Part shown: piece after piece, positions 10,223 through 29,484 of the stretch
How positions within the stretch are numbered: position 1 is the stretch's first letter
Layout: every line of letters starts with the position of its first letter
Assembly (NCBI GenBank): GCA_965203175.1
Contig: OZ241867.1
Span: 384,001-448,000 of the forward strand
Direction of reading: 5' to 3'
Origin: Candidatus Latescibacterota bacterium
GTDB lineage: Bacteria > Latescibacterota > UBA2968 > UBA8231
Length of the DNA stretch: 64,000 bases
The notes under the pieces: generated by a model
The model's input: the letters and a program-made list of their open reading frames with translations, nothing else
Database searches by the model: none
Told to the model about the DNA's origin: nothing
Made by a program: the position numbers and the translations under genes

Positions 10223-10260
10223 AGCCGACATATCCCCCTTTTCCACTCCAGAAGGACGCC

Positions 10261-11139
10261 ATGGAAATCCAACCCCAACCGCAGATATTCGACGTCGATG
10301 AGCAAAACTTTGAAGAGCTGGTCCTCCAAGGCTCGCAGGAACGCGTCATCGTCGTCGATTTTTGGGCCCCTTGGTGCGGCCCTTGCAAGACCTTAGGTCC
10401 GATCCTCGAAGACGTCGTCGCGGCGCTCGGCCCCGGCGTGGCCCTAGCCAAGGTCAACGTCGATGAAAACCAGCGGCTCGCCATGGCCTTTCGGGTCCAA
10501 GGCATCCCCGCGGTCAAAATCGTCAAGAACGGCCAGCTAGCCCAGGAATTCACCGGCGCGCTGCCCAGAGAGCAAATCGAAGCCATTCTCCGTCCTTTGG
10601 TCGCCGATGCCCCCATCCCCGAAGAAGCCCAAGTGATTGACCAAGCTGACGACTTAGCGGCTACCGGCGATCTCGACGAGGCCGCGCGCCAGTACGAGCA
10701 GGCGCTTGAGGAAAATCCCACCGACGGCCCCGCCCTCCTCGGCCTGGCGAAGATCCACCTGCAGCAGGGCCGCTTTGAGACCGTGCAAGAGCTGGTCAAT
10801 CTCGTCGAATCGGACGCCCCCGAATACCCACAGGCCCAAGCACTGCTCACCCAGATCGAGTTTGCCCACCAGTGCCAGCAGGCTGGGGGACGCGCCGCCT
10901 GCGCCCAGCGAGTACTCAGTCAGCCAGACGACCAAGAAGCCCGCTACTTACTCGCCTGTTGTGCAGCCTCCGAGAGTGACTACGAAACCGCGTTGCAGGA
11001 ATGGCTACACATCGTGGGGAAAAAAGCGAACGGCGACCAAGCCGCCAAGGACGCCATGGTCGCCGTCTTCCACCTACTCGGCCGCGACAATCCGCTGGTG
11101 GCCGACTACCAGCGCAAACTCTACCAAGCCCTGTACTGA
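10261..11139 (+). CDS. cnoX: Thioredoxin-TPR chaperedoxin (YbbN/CnoX-like)
   Basis: DFWAPWCGPC, TPR helices, C-terminal YQRKLYQALY. Confidence 0.85.
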   Translation: MEIQPQPQIFDVDEQNFEELVLQGSQERVIVVDFWAPWCGPCKTLGPILEDVVAALGPGVALAKVNVDENQRLAMAFRVQGIPAVKIVKNGQLAQEFTGALPREQIEAILRPLVADAPIPEEAQVIDQADDLAATGDLDEAARQYEQALEENPTDGPALLGLAKIHLQQGRFETVQELVNLVESDAPEYPQAQALLTQIEFAHQCQQAGGRAACAQRVLSQPDDQEARYLLACCAASESDYETALQEWLHIVGKKANGDQAAKDAMVAVFHLLGRDNPLVADYQRKLYQALY

Positions 11140-11146
11140 GCACGCC

Positions 11147-12202
11147 GTGCAGATTACCCGCCTCGAACGCACCGTCTGTTGCGTGCCCTTCCTCCCGGGC
11201 ATCCTACCCCCGCCCGAGTACGACGAGCCCTCGCCCGGCTATCCCGAGCCGCTCTCGGCCCGACGCCAAGACATCCTCAGGATCCACACCGACCAAGGAC
11301 TGACCGGCCTCGGCATGAGCGGACCGTACTACGGCGACCGCACAGAACAACCACCCGACCTGATCGGCAAAGACCCCAACACCTTTGAGCCACGCGCCTT
11401 GCGCGGCGGTGGCTGGGACATCGCCCTCCTCGATCTGATCGGCAAAATGATCGGCTGGCCGCTGTGCCGCATTTTCGGCGGCAAGCTGCAGGACAAGGTG
11501 CTGGTTGACTACTGGATCAGTCGGATGAGCGCCGCGGATACCGCCCGCGCGGCCCAACGCGCCGCCGAGCTGGGTTTCCACGGCATCAAGATGAAGTGCA
11601 AGTGGGAAGATGCCAACATGGAGGACCGAGTCCGCGCCGCCCTCGAAGTCGCGCCGCACCTGCGAGTAGTCCTAGACCCCAACGAGCGCTTCTACAATCT
11701 CGAAAACGCCCTCGACCTAGCCCGCCGCCTCGACGGACTCGACGTGGTCTTTGAAGATCCCTTCCCCAAAACCGATCTCAACGAATATCGCCGCCTCAAG
11801 GAAGAGACCAGCGTCCTCGTCGCCCCGCACTTCCAAAACCCCCGCCAGATCATCGACGCAGTGCATCTCGAAGCGGTTGACGCCTTCAACGTCGCGCCCT
11901 CGGATTGGGATTTTCTCGACATGGCGCGCATCGCCGCAAGCGCGGACATCCCCGTGTGGCAAGCCTCCAATGTCGATCTGGGGATTTTCGACGCCTTCCG
12001 CCTCCACGCCTCGGCCGCCGCGCCCAACTGCACCTTTGGCTCAGACCTCTGCGGCAACTTCGCGCACGAGCACAGCCTGCTCAAAGAGCCACTGGTCCAA
12101 GACGGCTACGCCATCGTGCCCACCGGCCCAGGTTTGGGCGTGGAATTGGACGAGAACGCCGTCGCCCGCTACGCAGTCTCCGCGCAGCAGTGGCCCGGCT
12201 AG
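11147..12202 (+). CDS. Mandelate racemase/muconate lactonizing enzyme family (enolase superfamily)
   Basis: DIALLDLIGK, KMK, DPNE, EDP and PTGPGLGVELD; GTG start at 11147. Confidence 0.85.
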   Translation: MQITRLERTVCCVPFLPGILPPPEYDEPSPGYPEPLSARRQDILRIHTDQGLTGLGMSGPYYGDRTEQPPDLIGKDPNTFEPRALRGGGWDIALLDLIGKMIGWPLCRIFGGKLQDKVLVDYWISRMSAADTARAAQRAAELGFHGIKMKCKWEDANMEDRVRAALEVAPHLRVVLDPNERFYNLENALDLARRLDGLDVVFEDPFPKTDLNEYRRLKEETSVLVAPHFQNPRQIIDAVHLEAVDAFNVAPSDWDFLDMARIAASADIPVWQASNVDLGIFDAFRLHASAAAPNCTFGSDLCGNFAHEHSLLKEPLVQDGYAIVPTGPGLGVELDENAVARYAVSAQQWPG

Positions 12203-12240
12203 GCCGGGATCAGCGCCTCTGCGCCAAAGATCATCGGATA
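11945..12240 (+). repeat. Direct repeat copy 1 (296 bp) spanning the enolase 3' end and the phyH 3' end
   Basis: Matches 16083-16315 joined to 17611-17673 with about 11 mismatches by manual alignment. Confidence 0.95.
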
Positions 12241-12310
12241 ATAAACCTTTAATATCAGAGAATTGGGAGCAAGGAACTCATTCGGCAGGGCTACTATGCG
12301 CTTGATACGT

Positions 12311-12339
12311 TTGACAGGTTTCAGTATGTGAAGTAAGGT
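12311..12339 (+). promoter_or_regulatory. Candidate sigma70 promoter for the STAND gene
   Basis: TTGACA-17 bp-TAAGGT in the AT-rich island leader. Confidence 0.4.
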
Positions 12340-12505
12340 ATCAATCTCTTCGCATTCTCCTGACTAATTGCTAAAAAATGCAGAAGATGAAGGGGTGCGA
12401 AAAAATAATCAGGCAAATCTCGCTCCGGTACCCTTAGCCTAGATATGTTTCGTTTCTGCTAGCGTAAAGGAGATAAGACAGATTTGTCGTTTAATAAAAT
12501 TCTTA

Positions 12506-13436
12506 GAAGCCGTCTGAAAACTATATTTTTCCCTTGATCCGTTTGAGTATCAAGTGGATCATGGCAATCTGAATCAAGGCTTCACTATGGCGGGTCAACA
12601 CCTCATAATATCTCGCATGACGACGAAAATTCATCAACCACGCAAACGTACGCTCAACGACCCAACGCCGTTTGAGTACGGTAAATCCACCGCCTTGTTT
12701 GGCGACGACTTCCAAGTCAATCTTGTGCGTCTTTTTTAGGTCGGCTACCCACGTTCGGATGGCCTGACCTTGGTAGCCGCCATCGACCCACAGTTTGCGC
12801 AAGCGGGGTACGTCGGGGGTACTATAGCGGGTCAACACCTGCTTGAGGCCGTCGCGATCATCGACATCGGCGGCGGTAACCACCACCTGTCTAAGCAAGC
12901 CCGAGGTATCAACCAACAGATGCCGTTTGCGGCCTTGAATCTTTTTACCGGCGTCATATCCGGTTGTTTTACCTTGGGTTGCCGTCTTAATCGTCTGACT
13001 GTCGATACAGCCTGCCGACGGCTGAGATACCCGGCCTTGTCGGCGACGCTCTCGTTGGGTGAGTTGATCCAACACCCGGGGCCAGACCCCTTGCAGACTC
13101 CAGCGACGAAAGGAATCATACACGGTTTTCCACGGCCCAAAACAACAAGGCAACAAAGCCCAAGGACACCCAGTCTTAGTCAAATACAAAAGGCCGTTGA
13201 CGATCTGGCGTCGATCCCGCGGGGGCCGACCCGGACCGTTCGGCCACCACCGCGAAGGCGGCAGCAACGGTTGAATCTGCTGCCATTGCGCATCGGTTAC
13301 ATCGGTAGCATATTGGCCATCAGGCGTACTCATCATGCAAGCCTTTCTATTCAGACTTTTGTAGCGAAACCTGAATATGGCCCGATGAGTACGCCGTTTC
13401 AAATGCAGACCACATCAAGGGTTTTCAGACGGCTTC
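12506..13436 (-). mobile_element. IS5 family element (IS1031-like)
   Basis: TIRs GAAGCCGTCTGAAAAC/GTTTTCAGACGGCTTC; TTA target duplication at 12503-12505 and 13437-13439. Confidence 0.92.
12521..13336 (-). CDS. IS5 family transposase
   Basis: YATDVTDAQW, TGCPW, IDSQT, GRKRHLLVD, VDGGY and RWVVERTFAW motifs. Confidence 0.92.
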   Translation of the reverse strand: MMSTPDGQYATDVTDAQWQQIQPLLPPSRWWPNGPGRPPRDRRQIVNGLLYLTKTGCPWALLPCCFGPWKTVYDSFRRWSLQGVWPRVLDQLTQRERRRQGRVSQPSAGCIDSQTIKTATQGKTTGYDAGKKIQGRKRHLLVDTSGLLRQVVVTAADVDDRDGLKQVLTRYSTPDVPRLRKLWVDGGYQGQAIRTWVADLKKTHKIDLEVVAKQGGGFTVLKRRWVVERTFAWLMNFRRHARYYEVLTRHSEALIQIAMIHLILKRIKGKI

Positions 13437-13468
13437 TTATGCGGATACGTAACGAAACGGAATCGAGT

Positions 13469-16072
13469 ATGAAACACCAACTCCTCTTCGAAAAAATCGA
13501 TAATCGTATTGTTCGCGACAAGGAGGAGGGCGACTACGCCTATTTTCACGCGTTGACTTTGAAATTGGAGTACGTCACAAAACTCGTGACCGCGGGTGTA
13601 GTTGCTTGCATCGGTGATGACGCGGACCGGAATAGGTACTCACTTGAGCACAAACTTGTCCGCGCCAATTCAGTCGGCGACTGGGTAGCAAACCTCAACA
13701 GTGCGCTGGTAGGACCACCAGCAGGCTCCCTAGATTCCAACGCACGCAACCTAGCTCGTGATTTGACGGAGCGGGTCAATTCTACAGATTGGCGGTATCA
13801 TGCTGTAATCGCTTTGAACCAAGCCGCAGAAGAGATCGGCGCTGTGGAGAAGCTGGGCACAAAAGTTGCGCTTCGCCAGTTTTTCGATATCGGGACAAGG
13901 CTCCGGAATCGGAGTCGAGGTCATGGTGCTCCTACCAACGAACAATGCAGTAAGGCTTGTCCGTTCCTCGACAAGGCCCTGAAGGAGGTCGTGTATAAAC
14001 TCAAACTATTTCAGATTCCGTGGGTATATTTGCACCGGAATCTAAGTGGGAAGTACCGAGTATCTCCGCTTTGGGGTGATGCTTCGTGTTTCGAGTATCT
14101 CAAGAGCGAGCGCAATGTGCGCCTTCCTGATAATGGAGTTTTTCTTTATCTCGATCTCCCAGTGTATGTTCCCTTGGTCTTTAGCGATACCGATGTGCTC
14201 GATATCTCTCTTCCCAATGGAAACCACCGTGGTAATACCTTTGAGGCCCTTTCGTATGTTACTAATCAGACAAAGAACGTAGACGGATCGACATGGTCAG
14301 ACCCACCAGCGCGCCTTCCTCGTAGCGAGACCGAGGGGGATACTATACTTGAACCACTGGGCAATACCTTTGCCAATTTGCCTCCCAAACCTAGCGGCTA
14401 CATTCTGCGGCGTGATCTCGAAAAGCGCCTAAAGGAAGAACTTCTGAAGACTGATAGGCATCCCATAGTTTCACTTACTGGTCCGGGGGGGATCGGCAAG
14501 ACGACCATCGCCATCGCGTCAATCGAAGATATCGCTCAACTCAAGCCAGTGCCTTATCAAGTGGTTTTGTGGATCAGTGCTCGAGATATTGACTTGCTTG
14601 AGTCAGGTCCGAAGTCTGTTTCACCTCGAGTGATTACCCAGCAGGACATCTCGCGCGCCGCCGTTGAATTACTTGAACCCGCGGATAAGTCATCGAACGA
14701 TTTTGACCCAGATACCTATTTCCAGAAATGTCTTGCTGAAGGTGCGGCTGGCACGACACTATTTGTGCTTGACAATTTTGAGACAGTGAAGAGCCCGGCG
14801 GATGTCTTCAGTTGGATTGACACCTATGTCAGGCCCCCAAACAAAGTCCTAATTACAACGAGATTTCGTGACTTCGCTGGCGATTACCCAATCGAGATTG
14901 GGGGTATGACAGATGAAGAAGCCAGTAGTCTTATCGACCAACATGCAAGATTCCTTAAAATTGGATCTCTACTGAATCCAACTTACAAAAGTGAGCTGAT
15001 TCGCGAATCTGACGGCCATCCTTATGTCATGAAAGTCCTCTTAGGGCAGGTGGTAAAAGAGCAGCGTGCTGTCAAACCGCAACGTATTATGGCCAGTGCG
15101 GATCACCTGCTGAAGGCTCTATTTGAGAGGACATACGGTGCTCTTAGCCCGGCAGGACAGCGGGTTTTTTTGCTGCTTTGTAGTTGGAGGGTATTTGTCC
15201 CCGAGGTCGCTGTAGAGGCTGTGTCAATCCGTCCTAGGAGTGAGCGATTTGGGGTTACAGAAGCTCTGGAAGAACTACGTCGGTTTTCGCTTGTTGAGCA
15301 GATTGTTTCAAAAAAAGAAGATGAACTCTTTGTGGGAGTGCCGCTGGCGGCGGCAATGTACGGACAACAGAAACTGGAGACCAGTCCCTTTAAGAGCGTG
15401 GTCGGAGAAGATCGAAAGCTTCTGATGGAGTTCGGGGCTGGTAAGCGAGAGGATGTCCATAGGGGTGTCCTCCCACGAATCGAGCGCCTCGTTCAAACTG
15501 TGGCGGTACGAGCAAGTGCTAGCCCGACAACGTTAGAGGAGAACCTACCAGTATTGGAATACCTAGCGGCAAGAGTGCCAAAGGCATATCTACAACTCGC
15601 CGATTTGGTATTGGAAGCCAGTGAGTTGGCTGACTCCACAGAGCGTGCAAAAGGGTACATTCGGAGTTTCTTGGAGAACGCGGACGCTCCTGATCGACAG
15701 GAGGCATGGCTGAAGCTTGCAGACCTGTGTCAGGTGAGTCAGGACCTAGTAGGTGAAATTCACGCGCTCAGTGAGGCCGCGCTACTACCGACAACAGATC
15801 AGGAAGATCTCGGGCGGTTTGCGAATCGTCTAAACAATCGTATGCGAGACTTCAGAGGTGAACCAGAAGAAGTGCGGGGATTTCTTGAGCTGGTCATAAC
15901 GGCGATGGAAAGGCGTTTGAAAGATCTATCAGCCACGAATTGCTCTAGACTAGCTTGGCTTCACTTAAACGTTAAGAACCCGCAACGCGCGCTAGATGTG
16001 GCGAAGATTGGAATTAAGCTCGATTCGAGTAACGATCACTGCCAAAACCTGATCCGGATACTAGATACCTGA
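13469..16072 (+). CDS. NB-ARC/STAND NTPase with N-terminal HEPN-like RxxxxxH region and C-terminal helical/TPR region
   Basis: GPGGIGKT Walker A, VLDNFE Walker B, VLITTR, GHP; RNRSRGH at 13904-13924; alternative start at 13439. Confidence 0.8.
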   Translation: MKHQLLFEKIDNRIVRDKEEGDYAYFHALTLKLEYVTKLVTAGVVACIGDDADRNRYSLEHKLVRANSVGDWVANLNSALVGPPAGSLDSNARNLARDLTERVNSTDWRYHAVIALNQAAEEIGAVEKLGTKVALRQFFDIGTRLRNRSRGHGAPTNEQCSKACPFLDKALKEVVYKLKLFQIPWVYLHRNLSGKYRVSPLWGDASCFEYLKSERNVRLPDNGVFLYLDLPVYVPLVFSDTDVLDISLPNGNHRGNTFEALSYVTNQTKNVDGSTWSDPPARLPRSETEGDTILEPLGNTFANLPPKPSGYILRRDLEKRLKEELLKTDRHPIVSLTGPGGIGKTTIAIASIEDIAQLKPVPYQVVLWISARDIDLLESGPKSVSPRVITQQDISRAAVELLEPADKSSNDFDPDTYFQKCLAEGAAGTTLFVLDNFETVKSPADVFSWIDTYVRPPNKVLITTRFRDFAGDYPIEIGGMTDEEASSLIDQHARFLKIGSLLNPTYKSELIRESDGHPYVMKVLLGQVVKEQRAVKPQRIMASADHLLKALFERTYGALSPAGQRVFLLLCSWRVFVPEVAVEAVSIRPRSERFGVTEALEELRRFSLVEQIVSKKEDELFVGVPLAAAMYGQQKLETSPFKSVVGEDRKLLMEFGAGKREDVHRGVLPRIERLVQTVAVRASASPTTLEENLPVLEYLAARVPKAYLQLADLVLEASELADSTERAKGYIRSFLENADAPDRQEAWLKLADLCQVSQDLVGEIHALSEAALLPTTDQEDLGRFANRLNNRMRDFRGEPEEVRGFLELVITAMERRLKDLSATNCSRLAWLHLNVKNPQRALDVAKIGIKLDSSNDHCQNLIRILDT

Positions 16073-16082
16073 GCTAAGCAAT

Positions 16083-16315
16083 GACATCCCCGTGTGGCAA
16101 GCCTCCAATGTCGATCTGGGAATTTTCGACGCCTTCCGCCTCCACGCCTCGGCCGCCGCGCCCAACTGCACCTTTGGCTCAGACCTCTGCGGCAACTTCG
16201 CGCACGAGCACAGCCTGCTCAAAGAGCCGCTGGTCCAAGACGGCTACGCAATCGTACCCACCGGCCCGGGTTTGGGCGTGGAATTGGACGAGGAGGCCGT
16301 CGCCCGCTATGCCCT
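16083..16315 (+). pseudogene. Direct repeat copy 2, left part: duplicated enolase 3' fragment interrupted by the TnpB element
   Basis: Near-identical to 11945-12177. Confidence 0.93.
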
Positions 16316-17610
16316 AAGAAATCACCGTGGGACTGACGGCTTTGCGCCGGTTCAGGGGGATAAGTGCAGCCTGCACGAGGGGGCCGCAGGCTCCCTGAGT
16401 GCAGGCTGATATAGCTTGACACGGTCCTGCCACATGGTCATATGTACTATTGTGAAACGGGTGATACAAATCAAGCTCCTTCCGACAGCGGAGCAGGCGG
16501 ATGCGCTGGAGCAGACGATGCGCCGCTTCAATGCCGCGTGCAACTGGGTAGCCCAAAAGGCTTTTGAGCGCCGTCTGGCCAACAGCTATGCCCTGCATAA
16601 GCTGCACTACTATGCGGTGCGCGAGCGCTTTGACCTTCCTGCTGACATCGCCATCCTAACGTTTGCCCAAGTGGCGGCCTGCTACAAGCGCGATAAGAGC
16701 AAGCACGTATCGTTTCGTCCGCTGGCGTCGATTCCCTATCGCAAAGGCGCGTTCCGCTACAAGAGCCTAACGGCTGTCAACATCAAGACGGCCGATGGCA
16801 ACCGCCACGACATCCCGATGATTATGGGCGACTACCAGGCCGAGCAGTTTGGCCATGTCAAGCTATTTGCCGAGCTGGTGCGTCGCAAGGACGGCAAATG
16901 GTTCCTGATGGCTACCGTCGAACACGACCCCGAGCCGCCGTGCGAGCCCGACGATTTCCTCGGCGTCGATCTCGGGATGGAGAACCTCGTCACGGATTCT
17001 GATGGCACGATCCACCCCGGCGGCGACGTTGAAGCGGTGCGCATCAAATGCCAGATACTCAAACAGACTCTTCAATCGGCCGCCGACAAAGCAGCCAATC
17101 ACAGACGACGTAAGCGTATTCGTAAGAAGCTCAAGCGCACCGCCGAGCGCGAGTCTCGCTTTCGTCGCAATACGAACCATGTCCTCTCCAAGCGTATCGT
17201 TGGGAAGGCCAAAGACACCGGCCGCGGCATCGCTCTTGAAGACCTCAGAGGCATCCGCGACCGGATACGGTTTCGCAAGCCCCAACGTAACCGCATAGGT
17301 AGCTGGGGGTTCGACCAGCTCAGGCAGTTTGTCGCCTACAAGGCCGAACAGGCCGGGGTGATGCTCAAGCTGATTGATCCAGCGTACACCTCTCAGACCT
17401 GTTCGTCCTGTGGACATGTCGAGCGCGGTAATCGCCCCTCTCAATCCCGGTTTTGTTGCAAGCAGTGTGGGCATCAAGCCCATGCCGATTGCAATGCCGC
17501 CCGGAATATCCGGGCAAGGGCTCTCGTCAACGAGCCTATAGTTTCGGCCTATTCCGCCGCGGCGGGGTGAGCCAGGGACAAGCTGACTGCTTTAGCTGTC
17601 AGGGGTTGAC
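16316..17610 (+). mobile_element. IS200/IS605 family tnpB-only (IS1341-like) element
   Basis: Removing it restores the 296-bp repeat length; LE hairpin 16333-16355 and RE hairpin 17583-17602 share CTGAC.GCTTT; ends in TGAC; no TSD; no tnpA. Confidence 0.9.
16452..17570 (+). CDS. tnpB: RNA-guided endonuclease TnpB
   Basis: RuvC motifs GVDLG, IALEDL and HADCNAARNI; Zn finger CSSC/CKQC; GTG start. Confidence 0.93.
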   Translation: MKRVIQIKLLPTAEQADALEQTMRRFNAACNWVAQKAFERRLANSYALHKLHYYAVRERFDLPADIAILTFAQVAACYKRDKSKHVSFRPLASIPYRKGAFRYKSLTAVNIKTADGNRHDIPMIMGDYQAEQFGHVKLFAELVRRKDGKWFLMATVEHDPEPPCEPDDFLGVDLGMENLVTDSDGTIHPGGDVEAVRIKCQILKQTLQSAADKAANHRRRKRIRKKLKRTAERESRFRRNTNHVLSKRIVGKAKDTGRGIALEDLRGIRDRIRFRKPQRNRIGSWGFDQLRQFVAYKAEQAGVMLKLIDPAYTSQTCSSCGHVERGNRPSQSRFCCKQCGHQAHADCNAARNIRARALVNEPIVSAYSAAAG

Positions 17611-17673
17611 CTCCGCGCAGCAGTGGCCCGGCTAGGCCGGGACCAGCGCCTCTGCGCCAAAGATCATCGGATA
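17611..17673 (+). repeat. Direct repeat copy 2, right part
   Basis: Matches 12178-12240 with one mismatch. Confidence 0.93.
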
Positions 17674-18402
17674 GCCTTCGCCCGTGCGCACGGAACGCGA
17701 GGCCCCGTCCATATAGGCAATGCTAAAGGCGCGGCGCGACTGACCCGTCGGATTGATCCCCGAGCGGTGCAGCAGCAGATTGTTGAGCAAAATCGCCTCG
17801 CCCGCCTCGGCTTCAAGGTCGATTTCCGCGCCCGGCGGCGCGTATTCGGCTAGCTGCTCTTCTGAAGGAAAGTGCCCTTCGGTGATCACCCCGTGCTTGT
17901 GGCTGCCGGGCACCACCTGCATACAGCCGTTTGCCACCGTCGCCGGATCGATCGCAGTCCACACCGTGGTCGTCGGATTGTAATCCACGCCCCAGCCCAC
18001 GCCCACGTCTTGGTGCCAGGGCAGGATCGTGCCCTTTTCCGCCGGCTTGTTCATAAACATCGCCCGGAAAATCGACACGTCCTCGCCGATATAGCGCCGG
18101 GTGATCTGGCGGAAAAAAGGGTGCTGCATGTAGGCGAGATAGACGGGGTCCTGCTCCAAGCCCATGATCTTGCGGTACTGGAGTGTGGTACCCTTGTGGC
18201 CAGCAGAGACGGTGGGCATCTTCGCGTAGTCGGCGTCCTCCCCGTCGAGCTGAAACTCCATCTCCGGGTAGAGGATCTCGCCGAGCATGATCGCGTCAAT
18301 GCGCTGCTGTAGTTCGGCCAATCCCGCGTAGTCGAGGACCTTGCCGAGCCGCACGTACCCGTGCTCTTCAAAGTGGGCGTGCTGTTCGTCGCTGTATTGC
18401 AT
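17632..18402 (-). CDS. Phytanoyl-CoA dioxygenase family Fe(II)/2OG enzyme
   Basis: WHQD, NGCM..VPGSH, LLHRS...N...RR. Confidence 0.9.
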   Translation of the reverse strand: MQYSDEQHAHFEEHGYVRLGKVLDYAGLAELQQRIDAIMLGEILYPEMEFQLDGEDADYAKMPTVSAGHKGTTLQYRKIMGLEQDPVYLAYMQHPFFRQITRRYIGEDVSIFRAMFMNKPAEKGTILPWHQDVGVGWGVDYNPTTTVWTAIDPATVANGCMQVVPGSHKHGVITEGHFPSEEQLAEYAPPGAEIDLEAEAGEAILLNNLLLHRSGINPTGQSRRAFSIAYMDGASRSVRTGEGYPMIFGAEALVPA

Positions 18403-18438
18403 TAGCTGCTTCCCTCCGTTTCCCCTAGAAATGAGCAA

Positions 18439-18558
18439 TGTTCTGGGACTTATATACATGACTAATCACGTATACCTTTCTATGAAGTAGGATCGTCTCT
18501 ACGGACCGATCCTGATGGTATATATCCTCCCTTCATCTCGGCGATAATCCCCGCCGAG
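18439..18558 (-). ncRNA. Candidate omegaRNA scaffold of the second tnpB
   Basis: Three consecutive hairpins at 18537-18558, 18489-18513 and 18453-18474 overlapping and following the tnpB 3' end. Confidence 0.5.
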
Positions 18559-19628
18559 TCAGAGGTTAGTCCTCTGTGAAGGATATTGACCGCAGCATTG
18601 ACGTCTCGGTCTAAGACCATACCACAGGCATAACAGTGATACATCCTCTGGTCTAGTCCTATTTTGTCTCGGGGTATGCTACCACACCCTGAGCACTGCT
18701 GCGTCGTATTGCGGGGATCTACTTTGATAACCCACCCACCAGCACTCTCAGCCTTGTAGGTCAGGCATTGCACAAAGAATCCCCATTGTTGCTCCAGTAT
18801 GGATCGGGATAGGTGTCTATTCTTCACCATATTGGGTATCTTCAGGTCTTCTACTATAAACCGGCAGCCGAACTCTTTGAGCAAAGCGCTAGTGAGCTCA
18901 TGTACTTTGCCCTGCTCGCGCTCTGTAACACGCTGCCATGCCTTAGCCAACCACCGCCGCTTCTTCTCCCTGTTGTTCGAGCCCTTCTTTGCCCTCGATA
19001 GGATACGTTGGCGGCGCTTGAGCTCTGTCCTGTCGACGACGTTCTTGGGCATTTTATGACCATTGGACAAAACAGCTCTATCCTTGATGCCTAAGTCGAT
19101 GCCCACAGGAGGACGTATGTCCAGCACGTCCGGCTCGGCGACCTCCATGACAAACTGGAGCTTAACGCGTCTCGGTGTGCGAACGACACGCACCACCTTG
19201 ACTTTGCCATCAGGAAGAGTTTCCCTAAAACGCAGACGACCGATGCCTTTGATAGAGAATGAGTAATACTTGCCCGACGATTTGATCTTCGCAGGCGTAG
19301 GATCCTCAAAGGAGTGGATGCCGGTGCGCCAGCTCTTGAAACGAGGATAACCGCCGCGCCTAAAGAAAGACTGATAAGCACGGTCTAAACGACGAAGGAT
19401 AGAGCGTTGTATCCTAGCAGGAAACCGACTCCATTGTGGCTCTTTACGGCGTTCCGTCAGCTTGGCTTGCTGCTGCAAGTACGTAACAGACCGCTCCTCT
19501 GTCTCCCAAGCCTGCTTGCGCTCAGCCAAGCTCTCATTATACAGCCAGCGAGACTGATTGAGAAAATCAGCCAAGTTAGCATGAGCACCACGGCTTAGGT
19601 AGGCTTTTCTAGTATAGGTGCGTAGCAC
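18480..19628 (-). CDS. tnpB: RNA-guided endonuclease TnpB (second, divergent)
   Basis: GYPRFK, GIDLG, IVEDL, CSGC/CYAC, DRDVNAAVNI. Confidence 0.93.
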   Translation of the reverse strand: MLRTYTRKAYLSRGAHANLADFLNQSRWLYNESLAERKQAWETEERSVTYLQQQAKLTERRKEPQWSRFPARIQRSILRRLDRAYQSFFRRGGYPRFKSWRTGIHSFEDPTPAKIKSSGKYYSFSIKGIGRLRFRETLPDGKVKVVRVVRTPRRVKLQFVMEVAEPDVLDIRPPVGIDLGIKDRAVLSNGHKMPKNVVDRTELKRRQRILSRAKKGSNNREKKRRWLAKAWQRVTEREQGKVHELTSALLKEFGCRFIVEDLKIPNMVKNRHLSRSILEQQWGFFVQCLTYKAESAGGWVIKVDPRNTTQQCSGCGSIPRDKIGLDQRMYHCYACGMVLDRDVNAAVNILHRGLTSDSAGIIAEMKGGYIPSGSVRRDDPTS

Positions 19629-19648
19629 GCTCTATCCTTGCTTAGTTA

Positions 19649-20128
19649 ACGTGAGTTCGGTATAAGGTGAGGGACTCCTTTTTGGCTAAATTTAGGTATG
19701 CCGTTCCTAAAACCCAGCCATCGAGGAGCCCTCGTGATGAATTTAGTTGAATTGTTTTGCCACGTCGATGATTTTTGCCAAGCCTTTGAAGTCGACTGGA
19801 TACGCCACCAGTTAACGACCGGCCATCGCCGGCGGCGGCGGACCGGTCGGCTGTGCCTGAGCGAGATTATGACACTGTTGATTTGGTTTCATCAGTCGCA
19901 CTACCGCACGTTCAAAGCCTTCTACCAGCACCATGTATGTATCCACCTACGCGGTGCGTTTCCGGGGTTGGTTAGCTATGGGCGCTTTGTCGAGCTAATC
20001 GAGCACACAAGGCATCGCAGCCTCGTCAACTTTATGGTCAATATCCTACGTGGACTGATTGCCTATTGTCATCAGCCTAAAAATCCAGCAACCGCTCCGA
20101 TTGCAAGCGGCTTAACCCGAACTCACGT
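19649..20128 (+). mobile_element. Internally deleted IS982 family element
   Basis: TIRs ACGTGAGTTCGG/CCGAACTCACGT; TAGTTA duplicated at 19643-19648 and 20129-20134; ORF fuses LFCHVDDFC...SYGRFVEL to IEHTRHRS, so the DDE core is missing. Confidence 0.88.
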
Positions 20129-20205
20129 TAGTTACGAATATAAGACCCCAAATTTTCCTACCTTTCTCCCGGCTCGTCCGCTCCGTTCCAAACGAGGAAT
20201 CCACC

Positions 20206-21042
20206 ATGTCCACAGATAGTACTCCCTTCCCCGCGTTGACCCCATCCCAACGCCTGCACCTCGAAATCTATGGCTACGTCATCCTCGAAAAACTCCTGAC
20301 CGAGGCCGAAATCGCCTCGCTCTTAGAGGTTATCTACCAGATTGAAGCCGACTTCCAGCGCACGGGCCAACTCCCCGGAGCAAACTGCCATTTGTCCAGT
20401 TCAACCCAGGAATTTTTCCGCATCGACAATCTCCCTCATCTATCCCCGTGTTTCTACGAATATCTAACCCATCCTAGAATTCTGGGAATGGCCGAGGAGA
20501 TCGTCGGCGGCACCGTCCGCCTGGAGCAGTCAGACGCCCACATCCGGCGTCCGGGTGGAGAGCAGAAGTATGGCTTCCATCGGGGCATCAATCCCGCATA
20601 TTCCCACACCGGCAACGGCCTCTATCACTTCTCCTTCGTCAAGGCCCTCACCAATCTCACCGATCTCGGCCCCGACGACGGCGGCACCACCGTCATCCCC
20701 GGAACGCACAAAATCCCCCAAGAAGTGGATCGCCAAGCGATCATCGACGCGGCCTTAGCCGACCCCGCGCTCGTTCACCAAGTCGAAGCACCGGCTGGAT
20801 CGACGCTGCTCTTTTACGAATCGCTGATGCACTCTTCCGGCATCATCCGCTCGCAGCGGGACCGCGTCTTAATTCTCGGCGGCTACACCCCGACGATGTT
20901 CCAAGCGTGGAACGGCTACGACCCCGATCCCGAATTCGTCGCCGGCTTACCCGCAGAACGGGCCGCCTTGCTCACCGGCGGGGACAAATACGGCTGGCAA
21001 CGCAAACTGCGCGATTTAGCCACACCCGCGGAGACCGTTTAA
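20206..21042 (+). CDS. Phytanoyl-CoA dioxygenase family protein (HxG variant)
   Basis: YGYVILE, LTD...GGTTVIPGTHK, AGSTLLF..LMH; FHRG in place of HxD. Confidence 0.85.
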   Translation: MSTDSTPFPALTPSQRLHLEIYGYVILEKLLTEAEIASLLEVIYQIEADFQRTGQLPGANCHLSSSTQEFFRIDNLPHLSPCFYEYLTHPRILGMAEEIVGGTVRLEQSDAHIRRPGGEQKYGFHRGINPAYSHTGNGLYHFSFVKALTNLTDLGPDDGGTTVIPGTHKIPQEVDRQAIIDAALADPALVHQVEAPAGSTLLFYESLMHSSGIIRSQRDRVLILGGYTPTMFQAWNGYDPDPEFVAGLPAERAALLTGGDKYGWQRKLRDLATPAETV

Positions 21043-22809
21043 ATGCCGAATAAATTGCCCATGCGATACGCAAGCCAAATGCGGATTTGGTTTTCTTGGC
21101 TTTGTTGCGCTTTGCTCCTAGCGTGCGGTGGCGCTGAAGACCAAGCGGAACAAGAGCCAAGTGTGCGGCAAGTCCCCCGCGACCGGACGCTGATCCTCGG
21201 GTTGACCCAGATGCTGGACTACGACGCCTTCAACCCCTTTATCCCCGGCATGGTATCCTCGACGGGATCCAATTTTCTCTTTGAGCCGCTCTATTACTAC
21301 AATGCCTATAGCGAAGAAAACAATCTCATCCCCTGGATCGCGGAAAGCCACCAATACAACGAGGATTACACCGAAGTCACCATCAAAATCCGCGACGGAG
21401 TCCAGTGGAGCGACGGCATGCCGTGGACGGCGCGCGACTTGGTCTTCACCATCAACATGCTCAAGGCCAACGCGCCGGAACTGCTGCTGTCCACCGATAT
21501 GCAAACTTGGGTCGCCGAGGCGGTGGCCGTGGACGAGTGGACGGCGCGCATCACATTGAAGGCATCCAATCCAAGATTTCTGTTTTCGTACTTCACCGAT
21601 TGTTTCGGCAATGGAGTCCGCATCGTCCCCGAGCACATCTGGCAAGACCAAGACGCCAAGACCTTCAAGAATCTCGACCTAGCCAAAGGCTGGCCGGTGG
21701 TCAGCGGGCCTTATCGCCTGGTGATTGCCGCTCCCGAACAGCGAGTTTGGGACCTGCGGCCGGACTGGTGGGCGGCCGGATTGGGATTCCAGCGGCTCCC
21801 CAAGGTGGAGCGCATCATCTACCTGCCCTTCGGCAGTGAAGCCAAGTGGTCCCAGCAACTCTTGGCCAACGAAATCGATTCGAGCATTGACTTGCGCCCC
21901 GTCAATATCAAGACCGTTCTCGAACAAAACCCCAACATCTCCACCTGGACGGGCAGGGAATCACCCTACGGCTATCTGGATTGGTGGCCGCTGTCCCTCG
22001 GTTTCAACAATCTCGAAGAGCCTTTCAGCGATCCGGAGATCCGCTGGGCCATCAACTATGCGATCAATCGCGCCCAAGTAGTTGACGTCGGTTGGCAGGG
22101 AGCGGGCAAGTTCACGCTCTATCCCTATCCCGAGTTTCCCCCGCTAATGCGCTACATCGACCAGATCCAAGATCTTCTCGCGCAATATCAGCTAAATACC
22201 TACGATCCGGCCCGCACGGCAGAGATCATGGAGCGCAAAGGATGGCACAAGGACGAAGATGGGTTTTGGAGCAAGAACGGGACGCGCTTCAAGATAGTGG
22301 TCGATGTTTTCCCCAACCTCTTCCAGGACTTCACGCCGGTGCTGATCGAACAATTGCGCCAGGCCGGTTTTGACGCCAGCTTCCGCGCCACCAACGACGC
22401 CTATACCCGCATGACCCAAGGCACGGCCCGGACCTTTGTGATCGGACACGCAGCTTCAGTGCGAGACCCTTATTTCACCCTGCGCCTCTACCACAGTCGC
22501 TTCGTACAGCCGACGGGGACGGCGGCCGAGTACTTCTGGCGTTGGAAAAATGAGGAATTCGACGCGATCGTCGACCGCATGGCCGAGGTCGCGCCAGACG
22601 ACCCCGAGCTAGTCGAGCTCTTCCGCCAGGCAATGGATATCTGGTTCCGCGAGCTGCCTTCGATCCCGCTGATCCAGTGGTATCACCGAATCCCCCACAA
22701 CGAAACCTATTGGAAAAACTGGCCCACGGCCGAAAACCCCTACGTCAACAGCGCCTACTGGCACCGCACTTGGCTGCTCGTTTTACTCAATTTGGAACCC
22801 ACGCGATAG
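21043..22809 (+). CDS. ABC transporter substrate-binding lipoprotein, family 5
   Basis: LLLAC lipobox, IRDGVQWSDG.PWTARD, SGPY, IRWAINYAINR; start may be 21079. Confidence 0.9.
   Translation: MPNKLPMRYASQMRIWFSWLCCALLLACGGAEDQAEQEPSVRQVPRDRTLILGLTQMLDYDAFNPFIPGMVSSTGSNFLFEPLYYYNAYSEENNLIPWIAESHQYNEDYTEVTIKIRDGVQWSDGMPWTARDLVFTINMLKANAPELLLSTDMQTWVAEAVAVDEWTARITLKASNPRFLFSYFTDCFGNGVRIVPEHIWQDQDAKTFKNLDLAKGWPVVSGPYRLVIAAPEQRVWDLRPDWWAAGLGFQRLPKVERIIYLPFGSEAKWSQQLLANEIDSSIDLRPVNIKTVLEQNPNISTWTGRESPYGYLDWWPLSLGFNNLEEPFSDPEIRWAINYAINRAQVVDVGWQGAGKFTLYPYPEFPPLMRYIDQIQDLLAQYQLNTYDPARTAEIMERKGWHKDEDGFWSKNGTRFKIVVDVFPNLFQDFTPVLIEQLRQAGFDASFRATNDAYTRMTQGTARTFVIGHAASVRDPYFTLRLYHSRFVQPTGTAAEYFWRWKNEEFDAIVDRMAEVAPDDPELVELFRQAMDIWFRELPSIPLIQWYHRIPHNETYWKNWPTAENPYVNSAYWHRTWLLVLLNLEPTR
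22746..22809 (+). repeat. Left copy of a 64-bp imperfect direct repeat (functional 3' end of the SBP gene)
   Basis: First 24 bp identical to 24794-24817; the rest differs mostly at synonymous positions. Confidence 0.9.
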
Positions 22810-22948
22810 GGGTTGGATGTTCAGCATTGTCTTACCTAGCGACCATTACCCGAACCAATTTTTGGGTACAAGCAGTTAAGTGCAATCGCAGATTTTCCCA
22901 TCCCAAGGCGGCCCGTCCTAGTCCGCCCATGAAACTGGAACTTCCATT

Positions 22949-24766
22949 ATGATTATTGGCCGTAGATTTCAAAGCTATTTCCGCGTACTCAAGTTAGTGT
23001 GGGAAGCCAAGCCTTCGTATATGGTTCTCGCGATTCTTCTTACTGTGATCAGTGCGGCTGTGCTGCCTGCTCAGATTTGGTTATCGAAAGTCATTGTCGA
23101 TCGCATAAGTGAAATTCTTCAAGTATCCTCACAAGCTCGGGTGGTCGATTGGTATGCGCTTCTCGTTCCCATAGGTGCTATTTTCATTGTATGGGCAGTG
23201 GGAGGAACGTGTCAATCATTGAGTACCGAAGCAAGCATGTTTGTCAGCCTGCATTTCCGAAATTATGCGGAGTTTCTTGTCCTCAAGAAGGCTACAGAAC
23301 TGGATGTCGCCTTCTTTGAGACGCCGATGTTTTACGATAAAATGGAGAATGCCCTCAAAAACATTCCAAAGGCTCACAACTTGGCGTGGAGTTCCCTGAG
23401 CTTCTTGGGGTCTCTTCTTTCTTTAAGTGCTGTTCTCGCCCTCCTGCTCAAGCTGCATCCATTAGCAATTGTCGTTCTCCTTCTCACCTCTGCTCCACAA
23501 GCTATCGTCTTGGCTTATTATGCAAACCGGTGGTACCGTATAGAGAACAGCCGTGTGCCGGCAAGACGGATGGCTGCGTATCTTTCGAGTCTGCTGAAAT
23601 CCCGGGATGCCGTAAAAGAAATCCGTGTGTTCGGCCTTGGTAAACCCTTTCTGAGGCGCTTCCGAGAGTTCTGGCAGCAATACTTCGCCGCAGAAAAACG
23701 GGTACGGCTTTCAAAGGAACGCGCGAATGCTTTTTTAGGTCTCGCATCCAGCGCTGGAACCGCGGGTATTTGGATATATGCAGTGGTACAGGCTATCTGG
23801 AGGACTATCACCATTGGAGACGTCGTATTGGTTTTTCAGGCTGCGGAGCGGAGCCGAAGCATGTTGGAGTCCTTTTTCCGGACGACAGGCCGTCTCTACG
23901 AGGACACGCTTTTCGCAGAAAATCTTCTATCCTTTTTGGATCTGTCGCCGGATTCGGTGGAAGGTGCTTTGTCGCGAGGGAATCGATCGCAGCTTCGCGT
24001 TCCAAGGCCAATCCAGCAAGGCATTGAGTTTCGGAATGTCTCATTTCATTATCCACGCTCAGACCGACTTGTCCTTAAAAATCTATCCTTTACACTCAGG
24101 CCAGAAGAGACAATAGCTGTGGTAGGTGAAAACGGTGCGGGAAAAACGACATTGGTAAAACTTCTATCTCGTTTTTACGATCCATCTGAAGGAGTTATCC
24201 TTCTCGATGGAAAGGAGTTGCGCGAATACGATCTGGAGGATTTGCGGCGTCAAATTGGAGTAATCTTCCAAGATTTCATACGCTACGATCTCACGGTAAA
24301 AGAGAATATTGGTTTGGGCCAGATCGAGCATGTAGATAATATGAATCGCATTGTCTGCGCCTCTGAACAGGGAGGAACTAGGTCCATTATTGCTGGACTA
24401 CCCAAAGGATTCGACACCGTTTTGGGACGCACCTTTGAGGAAGGGGTGGATCTATCCGGCGGGGAGTGGCAAAGATTAGCTTTGAGCAGAGCGTTTATGC
24501 GGGATGCGCAGATTCTGATTCTTGATGAGCCAACCGCTGCGTTGGATGCTTTCGCAGAGTATGATATCTACGAACGATTTGCAGAACTTACCGTCGGGAA
24601 AATGACTATTTTTATTTCTCATCGATTCTCAGCAGTTCGCATGGCAAGTCATATTCTCGTCCTGCAAAATGGAGAATTGATAGAAGAAGGCTCTCACGAT
24701 GGACTGATGCGCGAAGATGGCCAATATGCCCGAATGTTCAATACACAGGCAGAACGATACAGATAG
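22949..24766 (+). CDS. ABC exporter, fused TMD-NBD, lower GC
   Basis: N-terminal TM helices, GENGAGKT, LSGGEWQR, LILDEPT, ISHR. Confidence 0.92.
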   Translation: MIIGRRFQSYFRVLKLVWEAKPSYMVLAILLTVISAAVLPAQIWLSKVIVDRISEILQVSSQARVVDWYALLVPIGAIFIVWAVGGTCQSLSTEASMFVSLHFRNYAEFLVLKKATELDVAFFETPMFYDKMENALKNIPKAHNLAWSSLSFLGSLLSLSAVLALLLKLHPLAIVVLLLTSAPQAIVLAYYANRWYRIENSRVPARRMAAYLSSLLKSRDAVKEIRVFGLGKPFLRRFREFWQQYFAAEKRVRLSKERANAFLGLASSAGTAGIWIYAVVQAIWRTITIGDVVLVFQAAERSRSMLESFFRTTGRLYEDTLFAENLLSFLDLSPDSVEGALSRGNRSQLRVPRPIQQGIEFRNVSFHYPRSDRLVLKNLSFTLRPEETIAVVGENGAGKTTLVKLLSRFYDPSEGVILLDGKELREYDLEDLRRQIGVIFQDFIRYDLTVKENIGLGQIEHVDNMNRIVCASEQGGTRSIIAGLPKGFDTVLGRTFEEGVDLSGGEWQRLALSRAFMRDAQILILDEPTAALDAFAEYDIYERFAELTVGKMTIFISHRFSAVRMASHILVLQNGELIEEGSHDGLMREDGQYARMFNTQAERYR

Positions 24767-24793
24767 GATTGACAAGAAAAGCCTTCCTATCTG

Positions 24794-24857
24794 CAACAGC
24801 GCCTACTGGCACCGCACCTAGCTACTTGTCTTACGCAACCTAGAACCCACATAATAA
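24794..24857 (+). pseudogene. Displaced, decayed 3' end of the SBP gene (right repeat copy)
   Basis: Translates NSAYWHRT*LLVLRNLEPT** versus NSAYWHRTWLLVLLNLEPTR*. Confidence 0.9.
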
Positions 24858-24899
24858 AGGATCGCAAATTCGACTCCACACCAACGAAAGGAATCACCC

Positions 24900-25970
24900 A
24901 TGCAGAAATCCGATCCATTTGAACAAGGTCTCGCAGCCGGTGAGGCCGCGGCTTCTGCCGCCGGAGACGCATCACAAACATCGGCCAACGGCGGGCGCAT
25001 GTACGTGCGCACCCAGAGTTTTGGATCAACCGATGCCGAGTTGCGCTTTTTGCAGCGCTGTGGCGTGCGCCACAAGGCCGCCAACTTTCCCTTCCACCCC
25101 GACCGTGGCTGGGATCTCGACGAGTTGATCCAGGAAAGAGAGCACCACGAGACCTTCGGGCTGACACTGGATATGAGCCTGCTACCCATATATCAGCACT
25201 TGCCCAACATCATCTATTTTGGCAAAAGCCCAGAGCGCGACCGGGAAATTGACCTCGTGTGCGAAATGATCCGTACCGCCTCGCGCGCCGGCATCGATTC
25301 TCTGCGCTATAACACCTGCATTCTGCCCATCGACCGCACTGAACGAGAAGAAGGCCGCGGCGGCTACGTCCACACGGCGTTCCGCCTCGACAAGGTCCCG
25401 GCAGAAGAACAGGCCAAGCTGACCGAAGCCGGGCGCGTCACCGCGGACATGCACTGGGAGCGCATTGAGTATCTGCTCGAACGCATGATTCCGGTGGCAG
25501 AAGAATTCAAGGTTCGCATGGGCAATTCCCAGGAAGACCCTGCCACACCCCCCGGTTATAAGGGCGTTGACAAAGTCCTCAATGACTTTGAGGGCATGAA
25601 GCGTTTCATCGAGATTCAGCGCAGTCCGTGTAACGGCTGGAACTTCTGCGTCGGCTCCATCGCCGAAGGGCTCGAAGATCCGGCTAGTGAAATCTACCCC
25701 ATCATAGAATACTTTGGCAGCCGCAATACGATCTTCCTCGTTCACTATCGCAACCTCCTCGGGGGGCTCTACAGCTTCCGCGAGGCGCTGCCCGACGAAG
25801 GCGATATGGACTTTCACCGGGTATTAAAGGGCCTTAAGGACACCGGCTACTGTTACGGCATTGATCCCGACCACGTCCCGCGCACCGACGACGATCCGAA
25901 GGGCCATTATCAGTCCTATGCGTACTGCTTCGGCTACATCAATGCCATGATTCAGGCGGTCTACGGTTAA
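24900..25970 (+). CDS. uxuA: Mannonate dehydratase-like protein, copy 1
   Basis: RDREID, GRGG, IPVAEEFKVRM, NFCVGS, VHYRN, PDEGDMD, PDHVP, GYINAM. Confidence 0.75.
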   Translation: MQKSDPFEQGLAAGEAAASAAGDASQTSANGGRMYVRTQSFGSTDAELRFLQRCGVRHKAANFPFHPDRGWDLDELIQEREHHETFGLTLDMSLLPIYQHLPNIIYFGKSPERDREIDLVCEMIRTASRAGIDSLRYNTCILPIDRTEREEGRGGYVHTAFRLDKVPAEEQAKLTEAGRVTADMHWERIEYLLERMIPVAEEFKVRMGNSQEDPATPPGYKGVDKVLNDFEGMKRFIEIQRSPCNGWNFCVGSIAEGLEDPASEIYPIIEYFGSRNTIFLVHYRNLLGGLYSFREALPDEGDMDFHRVLKGLKDTGYCYGIDPDHVPRTDDDPKGHYQSYAYCFGYINAMIQAVYG

Positions 25971-25993
25971 TCCATATTGTAAAGGAATCACCC

Positions 25994-27064: not shown

Positions 27065-27107
27065 TCCATATGTAACGCGCAGGCAACTTCAGGAGGAGGT
27101 CACTCGC

Positions 27108-27938: not shown

Positions 27939-27967
27939 CATATTTCGGATGTGGGAGTAAGGCCCGG

Positions 27968-29386: not shown

Positions 29387-29484
29387 GGAAAACGGCCGCC
29401 CCTACGCGTTAGGCCGGTAGGCGGACATTGAAAAGATCCCGCGACCAGCAAAAACCAACCTTTAGTTCAGGAATAGGCCAGGCA

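Follow-up and report, generated by a model that had tools for sequence, protein, structure and literature searches.

How can a foreign gene come to lie behind an intact resident gene, between the end of that gene and a second, unequal copy of the same end? The question is raised by two loci in an uncultured, Latescibacterota-labelled bacterium (Candidatus Latescibacterota; GenBank assembly GCA_965203175.1, contig OZ241867.1), both located in the window, the stretch of 64,000 nucleotides (nt) that was analysed, which corresponds to bases 384001-448000 of a complete 6.58-Mb chromosome. In the first cassette, the cargo is a gene for a STAND NTPase placed behind an enolase-superfamily (MR_MLE) gene; in the second, it is a gene for an ABC exporter half-transporter placed behind a gene for a family-5 solute-binding protein (SBP). 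Our analysis suggests that both inserts, together with about two dozen others in the same genome, belong to the rearrangement described as "insertion with long target duplication", and that the likeliest route to them is one-ended homologous recombination of relatives' DNA, a reading that we hold with confidence and doubt in about equal measure. The coordinates of the features are collected in Table 1.

The genome under study is labelled G000, and its relatives, which are metagenome-assembled genomes (MAGs), have other G-numbers; the genus set comprises 31 genomes including G000, hence 30 others. Extracted loci carry L-numbers and sequencing runs X-numbers. The repeat at the STAND locus is called H, with copies H1 in the working gene and H2 beyond the cargo, and that at the ABC locus H', with copies H1' and H2'. 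Compared with the relatives, the whole 20-kb stretch is a patchwork of genes present in some genomes and absent from others.

An earlier note, made from the letters of this DNA alone, had described two inserts bracketed by direct repeats, and these repeats were borne out. Around the STAND gene, positions 11938-12174 align with 16076-16312 over 237 nt at 95% (by BLAST, 230 nt at 96.5% with 8 mismatches), and the repeat continues in 12178-12240 and 17611-17673 (63 nt, 1 mismatch, 98%); around the exporter gene, 22746-22802 and 24794-24850 agree over 57 nt at 84%. The GC content, described as lower in the inserts, is 0.47-0.55 within both of them compared with 0.58-0.65 outside, and both flanking host genes are intact, as had been claimed for the upstream host gene at each cassette. 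The STAND insert measures 3.8 kb (5.4 kb including a TnpB element) between 303-bp copies, and the ABC insert 2.0 kb between 57-bp copies. Two descriptions of the first repeat needed amendment. The second copy, given as 296 bp, is real but split by the 1298-bp TnpB element; and H is more than the 3' end of the host gene, since besides the MR_MLE end it holds the last ~41 nt of a convergent PhyH-family dioxygenase gene, the stop codons of the two genes overlapping. Because H spans both ends, its duplication leaves two convergent, overlapping genes whole.

The copies differ mostly at synonymous positions, in agreement with the earlier note. Within 230 nt, H1 and H2 are distinguished by 6 synonymous single changes and a 2-nt change in one codon (Asn/Glu); between H1' and H2', in a frame read by eye, there are 7 synonymous changes, 1 missense and 1 nonsense change. 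For about 7 of the roughly 11 differences between H1 and H2, counting the bases of the tail and of the TnpB joint, the states are also found among relatives: H1 shares some with G006, and H2 with G001 and G010. Compared with G001, H2 and its tail have 6 differences in 293 positions; H1 and H2 differ at 8 of 230, and the neighbouring PhyH gene differs between G001 and G000 at 74 of 771. The H1/H2 pattern would fit divergence within a working gene rather than the decay of a fragment. Because the differences are mainly synonymous and also vary among the relatives, the bracketing copies are shown to be allelic in origin.

Empty sites, which the earlier note proposed to look for in related genomes, were found for both cassettes. 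With positions 9500-29400 as query, every syntenic genome of the same genus has the MR_MLE end directly followed by PhyH, and the matches to the left and right flanks of the STAND cassette overlap in relatives by the repeat's 63 bp. A model of the uninterrupted MR_MLE/PhyH junction aligns across the joint in the loci of 14 of 15 relatives; in G018 it stops at the gene end. The STAND insert is unique to G000, and across the other 30 genomes of the genus nothing matched the DNA of its gene and leader, except in the part occupied by an insertion sequence (IS). The ABC cassette, dead end included, occupies the same site in six relatives (G011, G010, G012, G002, G014 and G003) and is absent from five, in which the SBP gene stands next to uxuA (G001, G013, G008, G005 and G007); the flank matches overlap by 57-78 bp in G013, G008 and G001. 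In G006 and G041, other cargo lies at this SBP/uxuA site. Because relatives have empty sites, both cassettes are, on this comparison, genuine insertions.

Since the relatives are MAGs, it might be objected that the features found only in G000, the STAND cassette and a tandem of uxuA genes, arose when the assembler stitched two haplotypes in series. The reads bear on this. The sequencing runs that contain all or part of the stretch are for the most part metagenomes of sponge or marine origin, and two of them (X23 and X24) hold 0.82 and 0.78 of the sampled words and are perhaps from the source sample; their contigs are independent of the assembler, not of the sample. They are Logan k-mer contigs, which show presence, not absence, and drop rare forms. 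One X23 contig (12180-12555, 0 mismatches) runs from H1, where it has the H1-specific T at 12210, into the leader, and contigs from both runs (13410-16112 and 13407-16112, respectively, 0 mismatches) bridge STAND into H2 by 37 nt. The depth of the bridging contigs, ~17-27, is that of the whole insert. The flanks in X23 and X24 are mostly ~50 to >100 deep, with some bins lower, so that several relatives must share the sample, and one X24 contig is indeed an empty STAND site. A mixed sample and copies that differ by about a between-species amount are what a chimera would present. However, the insert depth of these bridges, short contigs that give no long-range linkage, speaks against it, as do the ABC cassette with its dead end in six other assemblies and the restriction-modification (RM) cassettes, described below, that are also present in G012 or G001. 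We regard an assembly chimera as extremely improbable.

The arrangement recurs across the genome, as the earlier note had anticipated. The whole genome was compared with itself in 60-kb pieces, yielding 1732 direct pairs, and these were filtered for repeats of 45-3000 bp that are at least 78% identical, lie 0.3-40 kb apart and occur in the genome exactly twice. A total of 105 direct pairs passed, compared with 5 of 143 pairs on the opposite strand; for repeats of 45-400 bp spaced 0.7-12 kb apart, the counts were 74 direct and 0 inverted. When an interior GC at least 0.035 under that of the flanks was demanded, 26 direct rows qualified and no inverted row, which makes 25 loci (the STAND locus was counted twice), one of them a pair of paralogues. 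H has only two copies in the genome and was retained; H' also resembles the ends of SBP paralogues, so the ABC pair was removed by the copy-number filter, and the survey therefore errs low. At about 19 of the 25 loci, an intact gene has one copy at its 3' or 5' end (ORF map, that is, map of open reading frames, read by eye). Only one of the 105 direct pairs is 100% identical.

Pfam searches with 107 ORFs from 20 other loci revealed varied cargo: NgoMIV-type and PstI-type RM pairs, a lone methylase, Abi_C, a SLATT/TIR/QueC block, RES, a PIN-type toxin pair, two MR_MLE genes, TonB receptors and others. Seven other loci were compared with five relatives, and four of them have an empty site that fits the repeat: the MgtE/NgoMIV-RM locus is empty in G013, the PstI-type RM locus in G011, the AspRS/Abi locus in G013 (101-bp match overlap) and the AKR/MR_MLE locus in G001 (68-bp overlap). 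At EamA/MR_MLE, the empty site is inexact. Cargo MR_MLE genes are 98% identical between species in which the flanks are 92-94% identical and leader and trailer differ (L173 compared with L190 of G012; L163 with L191 of G013). This high identity points to a recent exchange confined to the cargo gene and, taken with the lower identity of the flanks, shows at the level of these comparisons that cassettes, entire or in part, continue to be passed between relatives.

At L163 (genome positions 1826000-1831500), an MR_MLE gene lies between convergent genes for an aldo-keto reductase and a 787-aa protein, flanked by 68-bp copies at 98.5%, a design that is that of the STAND locus. The site is empty in G001, and G010 and G012 have the cargo without the reductase.

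The next question is whether a mobile element of a known kind brought the cargo. No inverted repeats stand at the cassette ends, and bracketing IS copies or ends with a short target duplication, the marks of a composite or IS-mobilised transposon, were not found: the single IS5-family IS lies inside the STAND leader, with inverted repeats GAAGCCGTCTGAAAAC at 12506-12521 and 13421-13436 and its own 3-bp duplication, TTA, on either side. It has two further copies in G000 at 94% (BLAST) and many in relatives. The earlier note, which gave the leaders as 140-270 bp, had missed this IS. The TnpB-only element has copies elsewhere in G000 at 73-80% identity, and a contig of a relative omits exactly 16313-17612. 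Both elements look like later, self-contained insertions that probably had no role in the arrival of the cassette. No mobile element was found by Pfam inside the ABC insert. The earlier statement that integrases and recombinases are lacking thus stands for integrases, of which Pfam found none in or beside either cassette, but has to be qualified for the first cassette, which does hold the IS5 transposase and TnpB.

Integrase-borne islands that bring a substitute gene end are well known, as are their integrase-less derivatives, the cis-mobilisable elements; phage 21 and e14, for instance, integrate into the 3' end of icd and bring a substitute end. The cassettes resemble them in that a working gene end adjoins the insert and a displaced, diverged second end lies at the far side, and the IS debris marks the region as one under reshaping. 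They could accordingly be remnants that lost the integrase and kept the att repeats, or products of a site-specific recombinase acting in trans, as the earlier note had also considered. Neither an integrase-bearing island nor a cis-mobilisable element was recognised at the two loci, however, and among the 107 ORFs at the 20 other loci Pfam found no integrase or resolvase family, only one TnpB fragment. The repeats are locus-specific, use many targets and cover 5' as well as 3' gene ends, and no shared core was found across the 27 junction sets listed. The genome encodes 4 tyrosine recombinases, none of them in the window, and 0 serine recombinases, and no larger parent island was seen at the two sites in the relatives examined. 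Because the junctions lack a shared core and recombinases are so few, site-specific recombination is unlikely; we consider an origin from islands or from a recombinase in trans very improbable.

One candidate for a hidden recombinase was rejected: a 361-aa ORF without family assignment that recurs at 100% identity (two copies flank the cassette at one locus, and one lies inside the insert at another) is an antisense frame of an IS5-type transposase (DDE_Tnp_1_5). This IS, whose transposase has 348 aa, is present in several copies (L171, 2109-3194; L159, 137-1222 and 5570-6655; L069; L070); the products of two compared copies are 100% identical, and picking the longest ORF favours the antisense frame. 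At L171, it splits a PhyH gene.

The sequence next to the copies bears on the remaining explanations. The ABC leader, which separates the SBP gene from the ABC gene by 139 nt, is made of three pieces: first an intergenic tail of the native, "long" type (to ~22841), then ~40 nt that form the end of a conserved element (22841-22878), and lastly a remainder. The native tail follows H1' for 36 nt, as in G005, G007, G006 and G041, and H2' runs into the "short"-type tail of the empty genome G013. Behind copy 1 of the MgtE/RM cassette lie ~50 nt of native-type tail that do not recur behind copy 2. A plain target duplication leaves no such unrepeated tails, which indicate that the incoming DNA reached leftwards into homologous sequence, that is, carried a homologous arm. 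The ABC cassette and this RM cassette are laid out as one would expect if cargo arrived together with a homologous gene end, as the earlier note proposed, and such a geometry would be given by one-ended recombination or by the single crossover of a circle.

For one-ended recombination, the proposed course is as follows. Foreign cargo would come to sit at a gene-end junction between two unequal target copies through recombination by the cell's own machinery, with DNA of a related lineage as substrate and no mobility gene of the cargo's own responsible. The incoming DNA would bear the cargo adjoining a homologous gene end; one side would recombine homologously, and the illegitimate joint of the other would fall slightly "too early" in the resident sequence, as in homology-facilitated illegitimate recombination. 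The outcome would be an intact, partly imported gene end on one side and, on the other, the displaced resident end as a dead second copy. Survivors would be those products that leave both neighbours intact, so that the repeats cover gene ends. A finished cassette could then spread among relatives by ordinary recombination in the flanks, or be lost by recombination between the repeats.

The earlier note had instead favoured a small circle, consisting of cargo and one allelic gene end, that integrates by a single RecA-type crossover within the gene end and could leave in the same way. Such a circle yields the exact product at all three structures, if a cargo-free circle is allowed for the uxuA tandem; it makes the copies allelic, and a donor circle entering a short-type recipient would leave the long and short tails of the ABC cassette. 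No circle or tandem joint of the STAND cassette was seen among the 15 joints listed, although contigs drop rare forms, and a linear fragment gives the same product. A circle also requires a pre-existing repeat-flanked copy and hence accounts for spread, not origin; the 46-68 bp of homology at several loci are short for RecA; and DNA taken up by transformation is linear and single-stranded. An apparent circle joint of the ABC cassette in run X1, from 24857 back to 22842 (2016 positions), comes from a relative's contig in another study and could be a circle or tandem joint or simply a different arrangement of SBP end and element: it looks no different from a relative in which an H2'-like SBP end is followed by the full conserved element, and a loose end at 22845 shows such an element. 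We rank the linear, one-ended version first because it needs no pre-existing circle and explains both origin and spread; the circle remains a serious alternative, although an unlikely one.

The uxuA tandem behind the ABC cassette, which the earlier note took for a possible related product, supports this kinship. Its genes (24900-25970 and 25994-27064, both intact in the assembly) are 95.5% identical (repeat alignment, 1096 nt at 95.7%), and each is 90.6-95.6% identical to the single copy found in each fetched locus of 14 relatives, so the two differ from each other about as much as from the copies of other species. The tandem is found only in G000. Relatives show both states at 31 of the 49 sites that differ, and each copy has 9 that are private to it.

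A third route would duplicate the target in place. Cargo without homology would be ligated into a staggered double-strand break whose long overhangs are filled in; the working copy would later be overwritten by alleles from relatives, and the dead copy would be the fossil. The STAND copies, which both end at the same base, and the AspRS/Abi and AKR/MR_MLE empty sites, which overlap by exactly the repeat length, are readily explained in this way, and the genus recombines heavily, to judge by the uxuA sites and by the cargo genes that are more alike than their flanks. In published cases from Table 3 of PMC2853133, moreover, the two copies often resemble each other more closely than they do the target of the other strain. 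This route does not account, however, for the unrepeated native tails of the ABC and MgtE/RM cassettes or for the near absence of identical pairs among the 105, and it requires an extra step at every locus. Duplication in place thus appears to us distinctly doubtful.

Several points weigh against one-ended recombination as well. None of its steps has been observed. The STAND copies are fitted equally by a staggered-cut duplication or a circle. When flanks, H1 and H2 were compared with 11 relatives, no clear partner emerged for a foreign copy, and the informative sites at H1/H2 are too few to call hybrid repeat copies, so which copy was imported can only be proposed. ComEC, which might hint at uptake by natural competence in this uncultured lineage, is present in G000, but the same search matches 10 of 14 control genomes and proves nothing alone. 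Ku, a candidate for making the illegitimate joint, was not found in the genome. Some of the 74 direct repeats are motifs common to tandem paralogues, and 3 of the 20 scanned loci contain or adjoin IS copies or a TnpB fragment. The usual experimental outcome of homology-facilitated illegitimate recombination is a deletion, not a duplication, of recipient DNA. The process is also orders of magnitude rarer than ordinary recombination in experiments with other bacteria, according to PMC5361080.

The rearrangement itself has a precedent, so that the route called "little-described" in the earlier note is little-studied but published. Work on insertion with long target duplication is said to have been done by Nobusato et al. 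in 2000. The account used here is that of Furuta, Abe and Kobayashi (2010; PMC2853133). Inserts there are shorter than 20 kb, absent from a related genome and of atypical GC, between direct repeats of more than 30 bp (46 to ~420 bp) that match a single-copy target. Other mobile elements play no part, the repeats often overlie a gene 3' end, and most cases are in competent species. Double-strand breaks made by RM systems are suggested as the common cause, and the mechanism is left open. Both our cassettes have repeats above 30 bp and inserts below 20 kb and are absent from relatives; R and M genes, which define that screen rather than the rearrangement itself, are lacking from the two and present at L165 and L172. 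The cargo in that study is RM by definition of the screen, whereas in G000 it is mostly non-RM (STAND, ABC exporter, Abi, toxin-antitoxin, enzymes); the copies there are near-identical, whereas those in G000 are allelic; and G000 adds two cassettes with an unrepeated native tail and an uncultured Latescibacterota-labelled lineage. Homology-facilitated illegitimate recombination is defined in PMC3240628 and proposed in PMC5361080 for displaced effector ends and orphan immunity genes at Vibrio T6SS and Rhs loci. It shares with the cassettes a homologous anchor and an illegitimate joint that together insert non-homologous DNA and push the old downstream part outward as an orphan; experimental demonstrations are confined to a few competent species and to E. 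coli conjugation, while for G000 it is read from anatomy. We therefore regard the cassettes of G000 as further members of a known, little-studied class, notable for the number of cases, the mostly non-RM cargo, the allelic copies and the unrepeated tails.

Table 1 Features of the two cassettes and their neighbours (positions in the window)
Feature	Position	Strand	Basis or remark
Host gene 1, enolase superfamily (MR_MLE)	10706..12202	+	Pfam MR_MLE_C, E 1.6e-32
H1, first target copy	11938..12240	+	last 265 nt of MR_MLE and 38 nt of the convergent PhyH 3' end
Leader of the STAND cassette, lower GC, interrupted by an IS	12241..13468	+	sequence
IS5-family IS	12503..13439	-	Pfam DDE_Tnp_1 and DUF4096; transposase 12521-13402
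Cargo 1, STAND NTPase (NB-ARC), 867 aa	13469..16072	+	Pfam NB-ARC
H2a, second copy of the MR_MLE end, dead fragment	16076..16312	+	repeat comparison; begins 3 bases past STAND
TnpB-only IS200/IS605-type element, 1298 bp	16313..17610	+	ORF 16416-17570; Pfam OrfB_IS605 and Cas12f1-like_TNB
H2b, remainder of the second copy	17611..17673	+	runs into the native PhyH gene
PhyH-family dioxygenase	17632..18459	-	Pfam PhyH; convergent with MR_MLE, stops overlap
G000-only insertion: second TnpB (18480-19628, minus strand) and IS982-like transposase fragment	18445..20148	-	Pfam; NCBIfam
Second PhyH gene	20201-21052		absent in G013 and G007
Host gene 2, family-5 SBP	21043..22809	+	Pfam SBP_bac_5, E 5.7e-48
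H1', working SBP gene end	22746..22802	+	repeat comparison
ABC leader, three pieces	22803..22948	+	comparison with G005, G007, G006 and G041; nhmmer
Cargo 2, ABC exporter half-transporter, 605 aa, lower GC	22949..24766	+	Pfam ABC_membrane and ABC_tran
Putative terminator-like hairpin, 9-bp stem (CAGATAGGA / TCCTATCTG)	24760..24793	+	sequence reading; end of cargo 2
H2', dead SBP-end copy with premature stop, then "short"-type tail	24794..24857	+	same tail in empty genome G013
Tandem uxuA units, 1094 bp each	24887..27074	+	two genes

As to the genes themselves, the listed MR_MLE ORF begins at 10706, and the true start probably lies near 11144. This host gene is itself variable: G009 and G004 (L017 and L018) lack 11143-12240, and the end of the gene upstream of it there abuts the PhyH end. 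An apparent 1100-aa ORF at the STAND locus proved to be an artefact, the actual gene being the one in Table 1. Among the nearest relatives of the STAND protein (66-39% identical) are records from Binatia, Chromohalobacter, Fibrobacteraceae and Verrucomicrobia, that is, from unrelated phyla; no PADLOC family was found for this cargo, and the sole NCBIfam match, FxSxx_TPR, was far below the cut-off. The earlier suggestion that host gene 2 encodes a partner of the exporter was not upheld, the product being a SBP_bac_5 solute-binding protein. Between the two cassettes, 18444 is joined to 20149 in relatives and in the contigs of other runs, across 9-30 nt of different sequence; the IS982 fragment (an NCBIfam match below the cut-off) and the second TnpB are best explained as later, independent insertions. 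Downstream of the tandem, a TPR gene (27108-27938; region 27192-27958) is absent from G011, G014, G003 and G006 and present in G012, G008 and G007.

The ABC leader contains the end of a conserved element of ~170 nt, which ends sharply at ...TTACCCGAACCAATTGTTCGGGTACAAGCAGTTA, has an 8-bp palindromic stem and was found at 22841-22878 of the window and also at L034-L063. A search for its 34-nt end motif with at most 3 mismatches gave 38 matches in 16 of the 31 genomes of the genus and 0 in a reversed-pattern control, and a whole-element profile (nhmmer) gave about 10 full or partial copies in G000 (at 1802958, 1809686, 1999495, 2006332, 3561582, 3565860 and others). An exact-motif scan of the genome (at most 9 substitutions) returned the window copy only, the others coming from BLAST, pattern search and nhmmer. 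The element often occurs in same-strand arrays, 2-7 kb apart, within co-directional small accessory genes (GNAT, NUDIX, APH, glyoxalase), and at the SBP/uxuA site it precedes three different cargos, those of the G000-type ABC exporter, of G006 and of G041. It had no Rfam match at E up to 0.1 (9 loci), and RNAalifold on 11 copies gave -8.8 kcal/mol without covariation support. An integron, considered for these arrays, was set aside: the element comes every 4-7 kb and not behind each gene, and at its 3' end, where an integron cassette would have its attC site, the ABC gene shows only the 9-bp hairpin. The element could be a promoter or operator, or a recombination landmark.

TnpB-type elements take their guide from the position to the right of their end. 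The 20 nt to the right of the TnpB element's end, in H2, recur in the working copy H1, and just upstream of them H1 has the 5 nt GCAGT in place of the GCCAT of most relatives (12170-12200). That GCAGT could shield H1 from cleavage by TnpB is pure speculation. A broader conjecture, which we hold to be very doubtful, is that the insertions are seeded by a dedicated activity that acts in trans and breaks DNA at gene-end junctions, candidates being TnpB-type RNA-guided nucleases or a factor of the ~170-nt element. If this were true, the bacterium would acquire genes from relatives that live with it in the sponge community by a programmed process.

Our findings show that a known rearrangement is frequent in this genome. 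About 25 cases in one complete genome, mostly non-RM in cargo, with allelic copies and, in two cases, with unrepeated tails, point away from an RM-specific cause and favour one-ended homologous recombination, with close relatives as DNA donors. If this reading is true, much of the gain of accessory and defence genes in this sponge-associated lineage would require no mobile element, and the dead gene ends would be dated fossils of each capture.

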